From sequence record NC_054894.1: a DNA stretch of 49,526 nt; one strand, written 5' to 3'. This DNA is from Escherichia phage Henu7. Below, in pieces: positions 2,974 through 42,622 of this stretch (positions within the stretch are counted from its first letter, which is position 1; every line of letters begins with the position of its first letter). The position numbers and the translations under genes are program-made. The notes beneath the pieces are model-generated. The model worked only from the letters and a program-made list of their open reading frames with translations, was not told where the DNA came from and did no database searches.

Positions 2974-3004
2974 TGACAAGTCGGATTATAGCATTGCGCA
3001 AGGC

Positions 3005-4001: not shown

Positions 4002-4059
4002 GACTCGCTCCAATAAAAAAATCGCGTAGCCGGATGATACCAGATACGCGATCTTTGAT

Positions 4060-4500
4060 TTAGCTATTTGTGCTGTTTATGAAGTCCGACTCTTTCACTA
4101 CGCGCAGCATTTCGTATCGGTCACATTTCGTCGTTAGCGCTTTGCCGTTTGAGTCAAATCTCAGATCTGGACGGCAGAATGAAGCGCGATAGCCCTTGCA
4201 GCCGTTTCGCTTATAGTCGGCGTGAACCTTTTCGGCTCCAGAAACGGAAATCATTCCGCGCTTGCGCCACTGCTGGATAACCTGGTGAGTAACCTTTAAG
4301 CGCCTTGTCATTTCTGCCTGAGATCCGTAATATTCGCAAACGGCATCCAGACGAGCACGCAATCCGGCTTTGACTTCATCCTTTAGAACGTAGTAGCCTG
4401 TTTTTCGCTTGCGCTTTTTCTTGTCCTTACCGCGCTTTACACCGTTGTTGCCATTGATTGTGCGCTTGTCAATTTCGCCAGTTGATGCAGCAATTTTCAT
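4060..4500 (-). CDS. helix-turn-helix DNA-binding protein (candidate early regulator)
   Basis: Start at ATG 4500 with GGAGG RBS; basic region KDKKKRKRK; HTH-like segment SQAEMTRRLKVTHQVIQQWRKRG. Confidence 0.55.
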   Translation of the reverse strand: MKIAASTGEIDKRTINGNNGVKRGKDKKKRKRKTGYYVLKDEVKAGLRARLDAVCEYYGSQAEMTRRLKVTHQVIQQWRKRGMISVSGAEKVHADYKRNGCKGYRASFCRPDLRFDSNGKALTTKCDRYEMLRVVKESDFINSTNS

Positions 4501-8226: not shown

Positions 8227-8474
8227 TGGGCGAGAGAAATGTAACACTAAACGAGACTGGTTTATTTCTGCTGTATCGCGCAATGGTGTGCCAGGCTATT
8301 GACCTAAATCCACACATCAAGGATGTGATAGGGGTTGACCCGTGGGAGTTTTCCAGCGCTCTTGACATGAGCTTTGAGGAAACCGCAAATCTACCTCTTG
8401 AGAAGTGGCACATCAAGATTGCTGATGATCTAGGTGAAATGTGGCAAGATCTTAAAAAGCGAGCGTCTCACTAA
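8226..8474 (+). CDS. hypothetical protein
   Basis: ATG 8226 overlaps upstream stop (TAATG), GGAG RBS; track ORF 8148..8474 trimmed to this start. Confidence 0.5.
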   Translation: MGERNVTLNETGLFLLYRAMVCQAIDLNPHIKDVIGVDPWEFSSALDMSFEETANLPLEKWHIKIADDLGEMWQDLKKRASH

Positions 8475-10508: not shown

Positions 10509-10724
10509 ATGAGAGAATTTTTAAACGCAGCTACCACCAGCACCGGAGGCGCGTCACTGGCTGGAGCGGCAACAGGTCAAATTACAATTGCGGTTGCTGG
10601 CCTTGTACTTATGGCTGCCTTTGGATTTTGGGGCGCTTACTTGCGCTGGAAAGATAGCAAGGCGCTGCGAGAGGCTTTGGATCGTGAAGATATCAAAGAG
10701 GCAATTCGAATCAGGGGGAAATAA
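10509..10724 (+). CDS. holin (probable pinholin)
   Basis: 71 aa with one strongly hydrophobic segment [21 protein letters not shown] and charged C-terminus; immediately upstream of endolysin; RBS AAGGAG. Confidence 0.6.
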
Positions 10725-11221: not shown

Positions 11222-11613
11222 AACGATTAGCTTTGGCGGTACTGGTTGCCGCCTCTCTTTCTGGTTGTTCAGCGTCAAGCGCTCTGAGCGGTTTAATCGG
11301 CAGCAAGCCGGAAATCACAGCACAGGCCGGAGCCGAAAACGTAAAGCAAACAGTAGGCGTGACGGCAAAGAATGACGAGAGCAGCAAGCAGGAAAGCACG
11401 ATCAAGGATTCGCAGGTTGGAAAGGTTGACTCCTCCAACAAAAAGAAGGTGAGCACTTCAAGCATCCAGGCTGAGACAATCACAGCCGACAAGATCGAGA
11501 TCAGAAACAGCGAGAGCGATTTGTATGTGATGTTCTTTGCGCTGGCTTGCTTATTTGTTGCTGGCTTTGCCGCTGGCGTTTTTTGGAAGGGCAGAAAAAA
11601 TAAAGGGGCATAA
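11218..11613 (+). CDS. unimolecular spanin (lipoprotein with C-terminal transmembrane domain)
   Basis: Lipobox LSGC at the N-terminus and C-terminal [24 protein letters not shown]; position after endolysin; architecture of the T1-type u-spanin. Confidence 0.7.
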
Positions 11614-11626
11614 TGCCCCTTTTTTC
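11595..11626. terminator. bidirectional intrinsic terminator
   Basis: GGGGCATAATGCCCC hairpin flanked by an A-run and a T-run; ends the lysis cassette (+) and the leftward early operon (-). Confidence 0.7.
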
Positions 11627-18325: not shown

Positions 18326-18383
18326 CTGCCCCGCGCGAGTGGGGCATAATAGCCTCAACGAAACGAATTGAGGAGATTGCAAA

Positions 18384-19352: not shown

Positions 19353-19413
19353 CACCAGATCGGGGTTGCGCTATAGTAACCCCATCGAAACGAAACACGC
19401 TGAGGAGCACAAA

Positions 19414-24226: not shown

Positions 24227-24282
24227 CTCCGATGGGGTAGGCTGGTATAGTTACCCCATCGAAACGAAACGGAGATATCAAA

Positions 24283-25981: not shown

Positions 25982-26211
25982 TCTTAGGTTTTGTAATTGG
26001 ATTCATTGCCGCTATCGTTATGGTTATGGTTATCGGCGGAGCAGCGCAGAAATACGCAATCAAAAAAGGCTGGTTTGCCTCCGCTATCTGGATCGAGAAA
26101 GAGAAGCGCTGGAAGGTGCGCGGTCGATTCCTCAGCGTGGCATCAAAGATTCATACTGGCATCCTGGAAGAGTACCGCTCAGGACGTAAAACCGTCAAAT
26201 ACGTAGATTAA
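25978..26211 (+). CDS. small membrane protein
   Basis: N-terminal TMD ILGFVIGFIAAIVMVMVIGG; ATG overlaps upstream stop. Confidence 0.5.
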   Translation: MILGFVIGFIAAIVMVMVIGGAAQKYAIKKGWFASAIWIEKEKRWKVRGRFLSVASKIHTGILEEYRSGRKTVKYVD

Positions 26212-26215
26212 CCTA

Positions 26216-26241
26216 AGCCCCGCGTTTGCGGGGTTTTTTTG
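26216..26241 (+). terminator. intrinsic terminator ending rightward early operon
   Basis: Hairpin CCCCGCGTTTGCGGGG followed by TTTTTTT. Confidence 0.75.
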
Positions 26242-26245
26242 TGCC

Positions 26246-26254
26246 TGTTATAAT
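26246..26254 (+). promoter_or_regulatory. extended -10-like element TGTTATAAT upstream of terminase genes
   Basis: TGnTATAAT match 27 nt upstream of terS ATG; the downstream GCCTCC...GGAGGC inverted repeat could sequester the RBS. Confidence 0.35.
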
Positions 26255-26280
26255 TGGCCTCCAACAAGAGGAGGCTAACC

Positions 26281-26811
26281 ATGAGCAGAGAAGAAAAGCA
26301 AAAGCCATTCACGGCTTACAATTTCAAGAAGCTATATAACAAGCAATATGGCGACATTGCCACGTTAGGCAAGCAACACCGATACACGCCGGAGCAGGTT
26401 TTCAATCTTGCGGTCAAATACTTTGAATGGGCGGAATCCAATGCACTAAAGGCGGCTGAATCTTCATCGTTCCAGGGTCGCACGTACCAGGATGAAGTAA
26501 ACAAGCCACGCGTTTTCACGTTCAACGGTCTGCGCCTGTTTTGCGGCTGGTCGCGCTGTGCTATGGAGAAATGGAAGAAAGAGCCTGGCTTCTCTGAGGT
26601 CATGGAGTTTATCGAATCTGTGATCTATGAGCAGAAATTCCAGCTTGCGGCTAACGGCGTGATTAACGCTGCATTCATCGCCAAAGACTTGGGGGTTGAT
26701 CAGCCGACGCAAATCAACGTTAGCGCAAACTCCGAGTCAAGCGCTGCAATCGCAGAGGTTGGGGCTGATGAAGTGCGCGAGGCGGTTCGTGATATCCTGG
26801 CGGAGATCTGA
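26281..26811 (+). CDS. terminase small subunit
   Basis: Position directly before the large terminase; RBS GAGGAGG; ORF trimmed to ATG 26281; N-terminal DNA-binding-like region. Confidence 0.55.
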   Translation: MSREEKQKPFTAYNFKKLYNKQYGDIATLGKQHRYTPEQVFNLAVKYFEWAESNALKAAESSSFQGRTYQDEVNKPRVFTFNGLRLFCGWSRCAMEKWKKEPGFSEVMEFIESVIYEQKFQLAANGVINAAFIAKDLGVDQPTQINVSANSESSAAIAEVGADEVREAVRDILAEI

Positions 26812-26813
26812 TT

Positions 26814-28385
26814 ATGCTTATATGGGAAGATTTAACAGTGGCGCAGAAACGCGCCATTAAAGAAATGAGTGAATACTCTTTTGAGAAGATGATCCGAATC
26901 TGGTTCCAGTTGCTACAGGGTCAGAAATTCCTGGGTAACTGGCATTTCAGTTATTTGTGTCACGAGGTGGAGAAAATCATTTCCGGCGAGTCGCAAAACG
27001 TGATCTTTAACATCACGCCAGGCTCAGGCAAAACTGAGGTTTTCTCGATCCATATGTCGCCCTATGCGTCACTGAAAAGCAGGAAGGTGCGAAACCTCAA
27101 CCTGTCATTCTCTGATGGGCTTGTCCAGCAGAACAGCAACCGGATAAAAGAAATTATAGGCTCTCCAGAGTGGCAAGAGTTATGGCCTGGCAAGCTGGCA
27201 AAAGCAAGCGCAAAAGATCTGATTGTTCAGGACGGCAACGGCAAGGTTAAATTGCAGGTCAACTCTCGCTCCATCGGCGGCCAGGTAACGGGTTTGCGTG
27301 GCGGCTATATGGATGATGGATTTACCGGAATGTTGGTACTTGACGATCCAGATAAACCTGACGACATGTTTTCAAAGGTGCGGCGCGAAGCGATTCACAA
27401 CCGCCTAAAAAACACCGTCCGATCTCGTCGAATGAAGGACACAACGCCTATCGTGATGGTTCAGCAGCGGCTACACGTCAACGATTCGACGTGGTTTATG
27501 ACGAGCGGCGGCATGGGCGGCATTGAGTTTAAAGTTGTGAGCATTCCGGCGCTGGTCACGAAAGAGTATGGCGATTCGCTCCCTGATTGGTTAAAACCAG
27601 AGTTTGAGCGTGACGTGCTGAATAGCGATCCAGTTTACATTGACGGCGTGGCGCACTACTCATTCTGGCCTGCAAAGGAGAGTGCAAAGGACTTGCTCTC
27701 GCTACGCGAAGCTGATCCATATACTTTTGCGTCTCAGTACCAGCAGCAGCCAATAGCGCTGGGTGGCAACGTATTCAAGGTGGATTGGTTCCAGTTTTAC
27801 GGCGACGGCGAGAAATGCACGCTGCCTAAACCGGATCGCTTTGAATATACGTTTATCACTGGCGATACTGCGCAGAAAGCCGGAGAGCTTAACGACTACT
27901 CTGTTTTCTGTTATTGGGGCATGTTCAAGAATCGCGTTTACTTCATTGACGGCATCCGTGGAAAGTGGGAGGCTCCAGAACTTGAAACCAACTTCAAGGC
28001 GTTTGTCAATCAATGCTGGAAGCGTAATAAAGAGTGCGGAAGCTTGCGACGGATCCACATAGAGGACAAAGCGAGCGGTACGGGTCTGATTCAGGGGGCG
28101 CAAAAGAGCTTACCTATTGATATAAATCCCGTTCAGCGAAGCACGGACAAAGTTACCCGCGCAATGGATGCCGCGCCAGTTATGCGAGCAGGACGCGTTG
28201 CGCTGCCAGAGAGTCACCCGATGTTAAACGAGATTCTCGCAGAGGTAGCAGCTTTCACTTTCGACGACTCGCACCCGAACGACGATATCGTAGATAACAT
28301 CGTTGATGCTGTTAACGTTGAAATGAACCTGGCAGACGATCCAGTAGCGCGAATGAAAAAGCTTGCTGGGCTACGGAAGAAATAG
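26814..28385 (+). CDS. terminase large subunit
   Basis: 523 aa; P-loop-like ITPGSGKTE; acidic nuclease-type C-terminal half; followed by portal gene. Confidence 0.75.
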   Translation: MLIWEDLTVAQKRAIKEMSEYSFEKMIRIWFQLLQGQKFLGNWHFSYLCHEVEKIISGESQNVIFNITPGSGKTEVFSIHMSPYASLKSRKVRNLNLSFSDGLVQQNSNRIKEIIGSPEWQELWPGKLAKASAKDLIVQDGNGKVKLQVNSRSIGGQVTGLRGGYMDDGFTGMLVLDDPDKPDDMFSKVRREAIHNRLKNTVRSRRMKDTTPIVMVQQRLHVNDSTWFMTSGGMGGIEFKVVSIPALVTKEYGDSLPDWLKPEFERDVLNSDPVYIDGVAHYSFWPAKESAKDLLSLREADPYTFASQYQQQPIALGGNVFKVDWFQFYGDGEKCTLPKPDRFEYTFITGDTAQKAGELNDYSVFCYWGMFKNRVYFIDGIRGKWEAPELETNFKAFVNQCWKRNKECGSLRRIHIEDKASGTGLIQGAQKSLPIDINPVQRSTDKVTRAMDAAPVMRAGRVALPESHPMLNEILAEVAAFTFDDSHPNDDIVDNIVDAVNVEMNLADDPVARMKKLAGLRKK

Positions 28386-28400
28386 CACGAATTGCTAAAA
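28382..28400 (+). promoter_or_regulatory. palindromic element between terminase and portal genes
   Basis: ATAGCACGAATTGCTAAAA, then terminator-like hairpin GGCTGGACTTTTCCAGCC plus T-run at 28413..28440. Confidence 0.4.
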
Positions 28401-28456
28401 GCGTGTACAATGAAGGCTGGACTTTTCCAGCCTTTTTTATTATGGGAGATCAGATA

Positions 28457-29737
28457 ATGACCGAGAAAACAAAACTCGTTAAGGCTGACGGCTACAACGA
28501 GATCTTTAAGGGAGAGCAGCGAGTAGAAACGCCATTTTATATGCAGGGCGGCGTTGCAAAACAAAGTCTTGCAACATTCTACGAGCGTGACGGTATGGCA
28601 AAGAGAATCATCGACGTGATCCCTGAGGACATGGTTACGCCAGGCTTTAACGTTGACGGCGTGAAAGACGAGGCAGCATTCCGCTCTTTGTGGGATGAAA
28701 AGAAGCTAAACGCTAAAATCATTGACGCGCTTTGCTGGTCGCGCTTGTTTGGCGGCTCCGCTATTGTCGCAGTTATCAACGATGGGCGCATGTTGAAATC
28801 TCCAGTTAAAGAGGGAGCGCCACTTGAAGATATTCGCGTTTATGACCGATTCCAGATCCGAGTTGAGAAGCGAGAAACAAACGCGCGTAGCGTGCGCTAC
28901 GGCGAGCCTGTTTTGTACACCATCATGCCAGGCGGCGAGATTCCAGAGTATCAGGTGCATTACACGCGAATCTGCATTATTGACGGAGAGCGCTTGCCTA
29001 ACGAGCAGCGCCGGAAAAATGATGGTTGGGGTGCGTCAGTCCTCAACAAGAAGCTGATCGAAGCAATCCACGATTACAACTATTGTGAGGAGTTAGCAAC
29101 TCAGCTTTTACGACGCAAGCAGCAAGCAGTTTGGAAAGCCAAAGGACTCGCTGATTTGTGCGACGATGAAGAAGGTATGTCGGCGGCGCGGCTGCGATTG
29201 GCTCAAGTTGACGACGAGGGCGGCGTTGGTAAGGCAATCGGCATTGACGCAAATGACGAGGAATACGAGGTGCTTAACTCTGATATTTCCGGCGTAGACG
29301 CTTTCCTTGAGAAGAAAATGGATCGCATCGTTTCGCTTACTGGCATCCATGAAATCATCTTGAAGAACAAAAACACCGGAGGCGTTAGCGCAAGCCAAAA
29401 CACCGCGCTTGATACATACCACAAGCTAATTGAGCGCAAGCGCAAAGAGGACTACAAGCCGATCCTGGAGTTCCTCTTGCCATTCATGATCGCAGAGCAA
29501 GAATGGTCTATTTCGTTTGATCCGCTTTCGGTTCCAAGTAGCAAAGACCAGGCTGAGATCTTGAATAAAAACATTGAATCGATCAGTAAGGCGATTGAAG
29601 GTCAGTTTATGGATGTTGAGGAAGGACGCGACACATTGAGATCTATCGCTCCATCTCTTAAACTGAAAGACGGCAACAAAATCAAGCTACCGGAGCCGGA
29701 GCAGGAACCGGAGCCGGAGCCAGGAACGGAGGTCTAA
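28457..29737 (+). CDS. portal protein
   Basis: About 427 aa directly after terminase; RBS GGGAG before ATG 28457; acidic C-terminus with EPEPEP repeats. Confidence 0.65.
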   Translation: MTEKTKLVKADGYNEIFKGEQRVETPFYMQGGVAKQSLATFYERDGMAKRIIDVIPEDMVTPGFNVDGVKDEAAFRSLWDEKKLNAKIIDALCWSRLFGGSAIVAVINDGRMLKSPVKEGAPLEDIRVYDRFQIRVEKRETNARSVRYGEPVLYTIMPGGEIPEYQVHYTRICIIDGERLPNEQRRKNDGWGASVLNKKLIEAIHDYNYCEELATQLLRRKQQAVWKAKGLADLCDDEEGMSAARLRLAQVDDEGGVGKAIGIDANDEEYEVLNSDISGVDAFLEKKMDRIVSLTGIHEIILKNKNTGGVSASQNTALDTYHKLIERKRKEDYKPILEFLLPFMIAEQEWSISFDPLSVPSSKDQAEILNKNIESISKAIEGQFMDVEEGRDTLRSIAPSLKLKDGNKIKLPEPEQEPEPEPGTEV

Positions 29738-32113: not shown

Positions 32114-32141
32114 CAGGGCGCTCATTGAGCGCCTTTTTTTA
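32114..32141 (+). terminator. intrinsic terminator
   Basis: Hairpin GGCGCTCATTGAGCGCC followed by TTTTTTT. Confidence 0.7.
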
Positions 32142-32615: not shown

Positions 32616-32634
32616 CATAAAAACATATTGCACG

Positions 32635-32654
32635 TTTAGCAAAAAGTGCTATCA
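32635..32654 (-). promoter_or_regulatory. palindromic element (inverted orientation) plus hairpin upstream of major capsid gene
   Basis: Plus strand reads TTTAGCAAAAAGTGCTATCA, then hairpin GGCTGTTAATCGCTAACAGCC, RBS AAGGAGA. Confidence 0.4.
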
Positions 32655-32696
32655 TTGAGGCTGTTAATCGCTAACAGCCTTTAAGGAGAAAGAAAC

Positions 32697-35623: not shown

Positions 35624-36283
35624 ATGCATCTTCCAAACGGTTCACAGATTTTTATCGAAGCGTCTCGCGGCTCAGAGCTTTCCGCTAGCGCAATCAGCAA
35701 CGCAGAAAAGCCAGTTTTCACAATGGCTGATACTGGCGATCTCGAAAAGGGTAATTACGTCATTGTAACTGAGTCCTCGTGGGGTAAACTGCTTGATCGC
35801 GTACTGCGCGTTAGCGAGGTTTCCAGCAACTCAAGCGCAACGCTTGAAGGTATCGACACCACTGATACCAACGTGTTCCCTGCCGGAGCAACAGCGAAGA
35901 TCGCAAAGATTAACGCGTGGTCTGAAATCCCTTGCGTTCAGGATCTTGCGCAGGACGGCGGCGAGCAGCAGTATTATACTTATCAGTGCTTGTCCGACGA
36001 TCAAGAGCAGCAGCTACCTACCTATAAGAGCGCTGTTTCCCTGACGTACACCTTTGCGCACGAGTACGACAACTTGATCTATCCTCTGCTGCGTAAAGCA
36101 GATGAAAGCGGCGAAGTCACAGCAATGCGTATGTACGTACCGAAAGCGAAGGAAATGCGTTGCTGGGCTGGCGTGCTGTCATTCAACGAGATCCCGCAAA
36201 CTGCGGTTAACGAAATGGAAACTGTTTCCCTTTCTTGCTCGCTGAAAGGCCGATACACATTCCTTCCTGTATCACAGGATTAA
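35624..36283 (+). CDS. major tail protein
   Basis: RBS AAGGAG before ATG 35624; followed by strong terminator and then chaperone and tape-measure genes. Confidence 0.5.
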   Translation: MHLPNGSQIFIEASRGSELSASAISNAEKPVFTMADTGDLEKGNYVIVTESSWGKLLDRVLRVSEVSSNSSATLEGIDTTDTNVFPAGATAKIAKINAWSEIPCVQDLAQDGGEQQYYTYQCLSDDQEQQLPTYKSAVSLTYTFAHEYDNLIYPLLRKADESGEVTAMRMYVPKAKEMRCWAGVLSFNEIPQTAVNEMETVSLSCSLKGRYTFLPVSQD

Positions 36284-40443: not shown

Positions 40444-40485
40444 TTGGTGCTACAATATGCAATTATCACAAAAGGAGGTCTATCA

Positions 40486-42550: not shown

Positions 42551-42554
42551 AACA

Positions 42555-42579
42555 AACCCCGCATTGCGGGGTTTTTTAT
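42555..42579 (+). terminator. intrinsic terminator
   Basis: Hairpin CCCCGCATTGCGGGG followed by TTTTTT. Confidence 0.75.
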
Positions 42580-42603
42580 TGGTTGCTATAATGCAACCTC
42601 AAA

Positions 42604-42622
42604 ACAGCACAAATTGTTAAAA
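42604..42622 (+). promoter_or_regulatory. degenerate palindromic element upstream of J-like gene
   Basis: ACAGCACAAATTGTTAAAA, preceded by hairpin GGTTGC-TATAAT-GCAACC at 42581..42598. Confidence 0.35.

Follow-up and report, generated by a model that had tools for sequence, protein, structure and literature searches.

A probable terminator-bracketed transcription unit with its own extended -10 promoter for the terminase genes of Escherichia phage Henu7

In Escherichia phage Henu7, the genes for the small and large terminase subunits, terS and terL, stand between an early-gene unit and the genes for the portal and head proteins. How is their expression set apart from that of their neighbours? 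We examined this question in a DNA stretch of 49,526 nt (sequence record NC_054894.1), here called the window. A sequence-only reading of the window had proposed that an extended -10-like promoter with a hairpin over the terS ribosome-binding site (RBS), together with attenuation at a terminator after terL, sets the stoichiometry of the packaging proteins. Our analysis favors another explanation. We consider that terS-terL probably form an insulated sigma70 transcription unit typical of T1 relatives, bracketed by two terminators and provided with an extended -10 promoter of its own. RNA polymerase arriving from the early genes would be halted at a terminator at 26215-26240, and the extended -10 element TGTTATAAT would start a new transcript at about A26263, with an unstructured leader of ~18 nt and a strong Shine-Dalgarno (SD) sequence. 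The unit would end at a terminator at 28412-28441. The portal and head genes would then be fed partly by read-through and partly by re-initiation at a TACAAT hexamer next to this second terminator.

To compare the locus among relatives, we collected the terS-terL-portal regions of 16 GenBank phages and 80 IMG/VR contigs, with genes located by tblastn. For the region upstream of terS, this gave 44 distinct sequences from Tempevirinae, Tunavirinae (including T1), Rogunavirinae, Braunvirinae and Webervirus. The terminator upstream of terS was overlooked in the sequence-only reading. It consists of 9 pairs (26215-26236), 6 of them G-C, with T7 at 26234-26240, and it ends 5 nt 5' of TGTTATAAT. The stem segment folds at -15.3 kcal/mol in RNAfold. 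A hairpin with five or more T after it is present in 43 of the 44 distinct relatives, and its stem varies by lineage with both sides altered (GCCCCGC/GCGGGG, ACCCGCC/GGCGGG, GCCCTC/GAGGGC, GGCCTCC/GGAGGC). Stem positions 1, 2 and 5 alternate between G-C, C-G and U-A among relatives, which is compensatory change. The GenBank record of T1 (NC_005833) annotates a rho-independent terminator at the homologous site, 8322-8344.

Directly behind this terminator, TGTTATAAT carries TG one base 5' of TATAAT, the sequence of an extended -10 element. It lies exactly where it had been described, and it is a conserved candidate promoter element in front of terS. The same order is found in 43 of the 44 distinct relatives: the stop codon of a small early gene, a G+C-rich hairpin, T6-T7, a short spacer (usually with GCCTG), and TGn plus a -10 hexamer, which reads TATAAT, TAAAAT, TATACT or TACAAT. 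Like extended -10 (TGn) promoters of E. coli and its phages, the terS promoter has TG one base 5' of a perfect TATAAT, a poor -35 and no other recognizable upstream element. It differs from the usual promoters of this kind by its fusion with a terminator T-run in a single cassette, which occurs at four places in the genome, the other three being 2985-2993(-), 40448-40456(+) and 42584-42592(+). Given these further cassettes, TGTTATAAT is best read as one member of a putative promoter class that would restart transcription right after a terminator.

Sigma70 start sites lie 6-10 nt after the -10 element. We calibrated the starts internally on 17 promoters of the window that are associated with a dispersed repeat (see below). 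Most of these have a pyrimidine-rich hexanucleotide after the hexamer and then A at position 7, and the rest have it one position later. A26263 marks the first C-A step of this kind in the terS promoter, and relatives keep C-A-ACA at positions 8-10.

At the other end of the unit, the terminator-like hairpin and T-run between terL and the portal gene had been placed at 28413..28440. This element is real to within one base, conserved and covarying. Its core, GGCTGGA-CTTT-TCCAGCC (28415-28432), extends to 10 pairs (28412-28435), 5 of them G-C, with T6 at 28433-28438. The segment 28386-28441 folds at -18.9 kcal/mol (z = -4.3), and the stem segment alone at -15.2 kcal/mol in RNAfold. A hairpin with a run of at least five T (5-8 T) is found in 23 of 27 distinct spacers. 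In a MAFFT alignment of 21 spacers, variants with a 3-nt loop fell out of register; pairs were therefore counted on the 14 in-register sequences and on RNAfold stems indexed from the loop. Among these 14, 94.4% of stem cells are paired, and most of the unpaired cells come from one sequence that is still misaligned (L023). Three pairs are altered on both sides (A-U to G-C, G-C to U-A and A-U to C-G), and the covariation score is 0.325 compared to 0.170 in shuffles, with 0 of 500 shuffles reaching 0.325.

The T1 record annotates the homologous terminator between terL and the portal gene as well (10545-10573). The two T1 terminators share with those of the window the flanking genes, the orientation, the hairpin-plus-T-run design and the placement before the next SD, and the T1 terL/portal hairpin, GGGCTGTC/GACGGCCC, differs from that of the window by compensated changes. 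Stem, U-run and compensatory changes are thus all present at 26215-26240 and at 28412-28441, and by these sequence features both are predicted to be intrinsic terminators. T1 has 12 more annotated terminators through its late region besides the two homologous sites. Likewise, more terminators stand immediately 5' of the following gene's SD in the late region of the window (at 32115, 33666, 33991, 36288 and 36990); therefore, the terL terminator is not special to the packaging genes. The T1 late region, as quoted in a paper on phage TLS, is organized in modules flanked by terminators with RpoD promoters (PMC11447400), which agrees with the model proposed here for terS-terL.

Attenuation at the terL terminator, as the sequence-only reading had it, would by itself leave portal and capsid mRNA less abundant than terminase mRNA, whereas the reverse is needed. 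Because the portal and head proteins are needed in far greater amounts than terminase, their genes are presumably not fed by terminator leakage alone. A conserved hexamer in front of the terminator suggests re-initiation instead. Among 21 distinct spacers from four subfamilies or genera, the hexamer before the stem reads TATAAT, TACAAT, TAAAAT, TATCAT or CATAAT, with A2, A5 and T6 invariant, and it stands at most 4 bases before the stem even in spacers that lack the dispersed repeat. The start predicted from TACAAT falls inside the 5' arm of the terminator, so that a new RNA would be unable to form the terminator; in folding, RNA started at 28418 or 28420 has no terminator hairpin. We infer from this arrangement that TACAAT may function as a promoter for the portal and head genes. 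Separate control of terS-terL would plausibly affect the amounts of terminase and head proteins, and to this extent the idea of a packaging-protein stoichiometry stands, whereas the route by attenuation and occlusion is not supported in the form proposed.

We also considered a classical attenuator or riboswitch at the terL/portal junction and rejected it. There is no antiterminator structure, leader peptide or ligand domain, and the 26 nt from the terL stop codon to the stem are filled by the repeat and the hexamer. A search against Rfam gave no family at the gathering score in the whole window, and for 26150-28520 at E up to 1 it gave only sub-threshold small RNA hits on the terminator hairpins.

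A layout like that before the portal gene precedes the major capsid gene (ATG 32697): a repeat-like sequence at 32627-32645, TATCAT at 32650-32655, a 10-bp hairpin at 32657-32681 and an SD. Only three T follow the stem of this hairpin, and a second copy of the repeat lies on the opposite strand (32634-32652).

Table 1. Features of the terS-terL locus and its borders (positions in the window)
Feature	Position	Strand	Details and basis
Predicted intrinsic terminator closing the upstream early-gene unit	26215..26240	+	Stem AAGCCCCGC/GCGGGGTTT, loop GTTT, T-run to 26240; terminator scan and folding
Extended -10 element TGTTATAAT (TGn + TATAAT)	26246..26254	+	Read in the sequence
SD-pairing hairpin TTGGCCTCC / GGAGGCTAA	26254..26278	+	Folding; formable only in RNA from upstream
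Predicted terS-terL transcription start	26261..26263	+	A26263 favored, at a C-A step 9 nt past the -10
terS, small terminase subunit, 176 aa	26281-26811	+	Pfam GP3_package, E = 8.5e-14; annotated terS in relatives
terL, large terminase subunit, 523 aa	26814-28385	+	Pfam Terminase_6C
Copy of the dispersed T1-like 21-nt repeat, aaATAGCACGAATTGCTAAAA	28380..28400	+	Fits the TLS consensus aaATAGCACnnnTTGnTAAAA exactly; overlap with the terL stop codon TAG
-10-like hexamer TACAAT, candidate portal/head promoter	28406..28411	+	1 nt 5' of the terminator stem; predicted start 28418-28421, inside the terminator 5' arm
Predicted intrinsic terminator after terL	28412..28441	+	Stem GAAGGCTGGA/TCCAGCCTTT, loop CTTT, then TTTTTTATT; terminator scan and folding
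Portal RBS GGGAGA and start codon ATG	28444-28449; 28457-28459	+	Read in the sequence
Portal gene	28457-29737	+	Pfam Phage_portal_3, E = 2.4e-71; start as annotated in Samwise

Comparison of 2.9 kb around the terminase genes identifies the window as a T1-like siphovirus (Drexlerviridae, Tempevirinae, Henuseptimavirus). This region is 96.3% identical to Klebsiella phage vB_KppS-Samwise and 93-97% identical to Enterobacter phages N5822 and AS5 and Escherichia phages IsaakIselin and JohannLBurckhardt, all Henuseptimavirus, and TerL is 99% identical to TerL of phage JohannLBurckhardt. The stop codon of terS and the start codon of terL are separated by 2 nt, the junction being GATCTGATTATG. Because the two genes are so close, terL is probably translationally coupled to terS. 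Several components of the locus are known already: both terminators are homologues of those of T1, the palindrome after terL is a published repeat, and the promoter is an ordinary extended -10. Annotation of Henuseptimavirus genomes, including the public BASEL phages Bas10 (IsaakIselin) and Bas11 (JohannLBurckhardt), whose promoter and terminators are identical to those described here, can record terS-terL as a unit bracketed by terminators and provided with an extended -10 promoter, and the palindrome as a copy of the T1-family repeat.

Several observations weigh against this reading of terS-terL. The -35 slot of the terS promoter holds TTGCGG (26226-26231), a 3/6 match, and the TACAAT hexamer has neither a TG nor a -35. 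The motif TGNTAYAAT is not above chance in the window (6 occurrences compared to 2.7 expected; 7 of 100 shuffles reach 6). Because it is not enriched, this count is not used as evidence, and the case for the promoter is made from position and conservation rather than from motif number. At the terL/portal junction, Webervirus sequences (L013, L030, L031 and others) keep CATAAT and a 6-7 bp G+C-rich hairpin (GTGGGCC/GGCCCAC) with no T-run, and given these sequences the conserved unit may have a role other than termination. In the terS leader, a CCTCC:GGAGG core that pairs with the SD is kept in all seven genus members, with weaker anti-SD arms in sister genera, and there may accordingly be some selection for SD pairing. 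Our literature search found no transcriptome or start-site map for Henu7 or any T1-like phage, and for this reason the start sites and the termination efficiency are given as predictions. The presence, conservation and geometry of the motifs and the covariation of the stems are observed, whereas the promoter activity of TACAAT and any part played by the repeat are likewise predictions.

What is the palindrome between terL and the portal gene? The sequence-only reading was right that it exists, AGCA-CGAAT-TGCT at 28384-28396 followed by TGTACA at 28404-28409. It is not specific to the junction: it is part of a repeat found throughout the genome. Phage TLS carries a 21-nt direct repeat, aaATAGCACnnnTTGnTAAAA, whose function was left open and which is said to occur also in T1, Rtp and Rogue1 (PMC11447400). 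The copy at 28380-28400 agrees with the TLS repeats in its exact match to the consensus, in its orientation with transcription, in its distance to the next start codon (75 nt to the portal ATG, compared to the ~76 nt given for TLS) and in belonging to a set of many copies. When up to 3 mismatches are allowed, 26 matches occur in the window where 1.95 are expected, and 0 of 100 shuffles reach 26. TLS and the window also share the GAA, TTT and AAA repeat subtypes. No related paper came up in a literature search for the repeat core ATAGCAC, and the Rogue1 paper does not mention the repeat.

At the junction, the repeat is found in Tempevirinae, Rogunavirinae and Braunvirinae and is absent from Tunavirinae, Tlsvirus and Webervirus. 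Unlike the window, the Tlsvirus relatives sampled (CF1 DK-2017 and related contigs) have no repeat there. T1 also lacks it at this junction, and a T1 copy instead overlaps the terS -10 and leader. Since Tunavirinae, Tlsvirus and Webervirus keep the hexamer and the hairpin without the repeat, the core function of the junction does not depend on the repeat.

Most copies are found elsewhere, in front of other genes. The 26 sites in the window include 4514, 7006, 13773-, 14471-, 15775-, 16605-, 16945-, 18307, 19334, 20737, 21705, 22106, 23206, 24208, 46596- and 49148. In 17 copies of the repeat, ATAGCACnnnTTGnTAAAA, a -10-like hexamer follows 18-20 nt on (mode 19), mostly with A at position 7 thereafter. 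T1 (L016) has 21 repeat sites, with about as many copies at the 18-20 nt hexamer spacing as the window. The TLS paper describes neither this fixed spacing nor hairpins specific to individual copies, both of which are seen in the window. By its recurrence and spacing, the repeat with its hexamer looks like the main promoter class of the phage. T1-like phages have almost no canonical -35/-10 promoters and, as stated for TLS (PMC11447400), no RNA polymerase or sigma factor of their own. Two other readings of the repeat were rejected. TTGCTA within it does not serve as a -35, as it lies 22 nt from the hexamer in the 17 copies, and a sigma54 promoter (TGGCAC-N5-TTGC), which GCAC...TTGC in the repeat brings to mind, fails by consensus reasoning, the spacing being 2 nt short and GG being AG. 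In the cassette at 42584, a repeat-like copy (42604-42622) lies in the leader, 3' of the -10, and the T1 terS leader has the same arrangement (L016 8362).

One alternative is that the repeat, possibly together with the inverted repeats, is a DNA site for an activator, a repressor or a "stoperator", which would make the terL/portal junction a protein-regulated switch, its copy controlling a portal promoter or blocking elongation. We regard this as possible, with the balance tilting away from it. Class II activators bind near -42. The repeat has a dyad, TAGCA-N5-TGCTA, and in the 17 copies that lie 18-20 nt from a hexamer this dyad would center near -42. It is strongly over-represented and oriented with transcription. 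In the portal and capsid units, the repeat lies 4-5 nt from the hexamer, with its center near -28, a repressor-like position, and the T1 copy that overlaps the terS -10 fits the same idea. The TLS authors themselves raise stoperator and enhancer functions (PMC11447400). Against a protein site stand the lineages that keep hexamer and hairpin without the repeat, and the hairpin arms, which differ between copies and so are not protein sites; further, no binding protein is known or was identified in this analysis. The closest analogies are lambda-type late-operon control, in which a terminator is combined with a DNA or RNA site for an antiterminator, and the stoperators of mycobacteriophage L5; both resemble the junction in having a short element and a -10-like hexamer before a terminator in a long structural operon. 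These are analogies only: unlike in lambda and L5, no Q-, N- or repressor-like partner was identified in the window, and most repeat copies stand at early-gene promoters, not at terminators.

The repeat-type promoters have a second common property. A G+C-rich inverted repeat, with arms that vary from copy to copy, encloses the hexamer of each promoter or extends just up to it; examples are 13773(-), 19334, 21705, 24208 and 49148 in the window and 2269, 3535, 4864 and 47099(-) in T1. When right flanks were swapped between copies, the mean stem length fell from 5.65 to 4.00 ± 0.23, and 0 of 5000 permutations reached the observed value. Internal non-Watson-Crick positions in 30 stems of the window and T1 comprise 7 G.T, 0 A.C and 2 T.T, a bias suggesting that the stems are sense-RNA structures. 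At 4014-4052(-), next to a repeat copy at 4058-4076(-), a terminator-like hairpin with an 8-12 bp stem and T7 carries the hexamer TATCAT within its 16-nt loop. Its T1 counterpart at 35930-35971(-) is an annotated terminator, again with the hexamer in the loop.

These features lead us to a tentative proposal, which we hold to be possible rather than probable: that promoters of T1-like phages are built into hairpins, such that RNA from upstream folds, and terminates if there is a U-run, at the place where a new transcript starts, within or past the 5' arm, and escapes the structure. Such a family-wide, self-insulating "terminator-in-promoter" grammar would be undescribed so far. In the variant formed by the terL/portal and major-capsid units, the hairpin would directly follow the hexamer; a further variant, silencing translation instead, could be the terS leader hairpin; and the 21-nt repeat near -42 might be the site of some activator. 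The layout of repeat, N19, hexamer and A(+7) with obligatory hairpins offers a testable promoter model for the whole family, and hairpin promoters suggest a way in which neighboring transcription units might be insulated by design.

We now return to the terS leader, where the sequence-only reading placed a hairpin over the SD. RBS-sequestering leader hairpins act as translational operators in RNA phages, and hairpins mask the SD of some T4 and lambda genes. The terS hairpin resembles these in that a G+C-rich stem holds the whole SD, GAGGAGG (26268-26274), 6 nt before the start codon (ATG 26281). The GCCTCC/GGAGGC inverted repeat is present, one base to the left of the 26258..26276 first given for it: GCCTCC is at 26257-26262 and GGAGGC at 26270-26275, and the stem extends to 9 pairs, TTGGCCTCC (26254-26262) with GGAGGCUAA (26270-26278). 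Folding of the hairpin alone bears out that the SD can be paired in a hairpin (-14.0 kcal/mol, z = -3.8, 0 of 200 shuffles as good, SD fully paired). When 69 gene starts were folded from -45 to +20, the mean unpaired probability was 0.17 for the terS SD, compared to a median of 0.51 over all starts. It is the second most paired SD overall and the most paired among gene starts with a canonical SD.

However, this hairpin and the extended -10 do not act together on one RNA if transcription starts where predicted. The final T of the -10 hexamer is the first base of the 5' arm, which runs on for 8 bases past the hexamer; one arm thus lies 5' of the predicted start, unlike in the known RBS-sequestering hairpins. 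This arm would be promoter DNA, in the discriminator region. RNA starting at 26261 or 26263 has an unpaired SD and folds with the same energy as shuffles. The pairing also differs from those hairpins in having no conservation beyond the genus and no covariation, as we observed no compensatory change, and RBS occlusion as a regulatory mechanism is weakly supported. The full stem at -14 kcal/mol is found in the window and phage AS5. Five other Henuseptimavirus (GGAGGATTAACC) fold at -8.2 to -8.3 kcal/mol, with a 5-bp core and the outer pairs lost; sister genera reach -5 to -7 kcal/mol, no better than shuffles; T1, Rtp, TLS-like phages and Webervirus show no pairing (about -1 kcal/mol), and the T1 leader has no anti-SD arm, unlike the window. 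The leader itself is homologous across the family (…CATCAACAAAGGAGG…), and CCTCC in the window differs from the common CCATC by small changes. The SD hairpin, the least supported element and the only one without precedent in the family, is a recent, lineage-specific addition. No opener for it, whether ribosome coupling, a protein or temperature, was identified.

The terS leader has a further likeness to other leaders of the phage. An A/C-rich leader, (C)ATCGAAACGAAAC, is conserved between the predicted start and the SD of repeat-type promoters (18352-18380, 19379-19410 and 24253-24280), and the terS leader AACAAGAGGAGG and the CATCAACAAAGGAGG of its relatives resemble a short version of it.

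Because its 5' arm is upstream of the predicted start, the SD hairpin could act only on RNA that reads through the upstream terminator. If active, it would silence terS on the minority of early transcripts that do so. Terminase would then come from the dedicated promoter alone, and the hairpin would be a second, genus-specific layer of insulation. We think this rather unlikely, while noting that hairpin and terminator form together when upstream sequence is included (-36.9 kcal/mol, z = -4.5), that the SD is as strongly occluded as described above and that the CCTCC core is conserved in the genus. Sister clades have weaker, independently shaped anti-SD arms, CACTCCT/AGGAGGTG and GACCCTC/GAGGTC, but their folds are no better than those of shuffles. 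The upstream terminator looks strong, and little read-through RNA is expected. Moreover, GCCTC(C) just after the -10 recurs at other promoters (the 49148, 18307, 21705 and 16605 units), where it pairs with an arm 5' of the hexamer; the arm may exist for promoter reasons, and its pairing with GGAGG may be accidental. Data on 5' ends would be needed before the SD hairpin is read as a regulator of the terS mRNA.

Another alternative concerns the hairpin after terL, which might chiefly stabilize the terS-terL mRNA by protecting its 3' end, or be a processing site, with termination secondary. The Webervirus hairpins that stand at the same place with no T-run speak for it, as do the capsid-gene hairpin with only three T and the 7 G.T versus 0 A.C in promoter-associated stems, which are expected for a sense-RNA structure. 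We judge it unlikely as the chief role, since the T-run that defines an intrinsic terminator, 5-8 T long, follows the hairpin in 23 of 27 distinct spacers; the two roles are not mutually exclusive.

Least probable is the original proposal that the mRNA from TGTTATAAT carries a hairpin that throttles terS while the terL terminator attenuates portal expression, the ratio being set jointly: it can point to a stable hairpin (-14 kcal/mol, z = -3.8), to the most occluded canonical SD in the genome in a long-RNA context, to a CCTCC core in all 7 genus members and to a real and conserved terL/portal terminator, but the 5' arm is the first 8 nt after the -10, a start 6-9 nt after the -10 keeps at most 3 of 9 pairs, compensatory changes are absent, the outer pairs are lost in 5 of 7 genus members (-8.3 kcal/mol), folds outside the genus are like those of shuffles or absent, and attenuation alone would leave portal and capsid mRNA below terminase mRNA.

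A pac site at this locus was set aside, as the terminal repeat with which the T1 record begins lies ~8.4 kb upstream of terS. Several relatives have an extra gene of ~0.45-0.57 kb between terL and the portal gene, or an HNH endonuclease gene between terS and terL (Rtp); these are L010 (phage A121), L020, L015 (Rtp), L043, L045 and L059. In Rtp-like phages, an ordinary repeat-type promoter, headed by the repeat after terL, takes the place of the terminator. Elsewhere in the window, perfect hairpins with an A-run on one side and a T-run on the other are found at 1080-1101, 11602-11622 and 42554-42574. The terminator scan scores both strands of these, and they may terminate transcription from both directions, at convergent or boundary positions.

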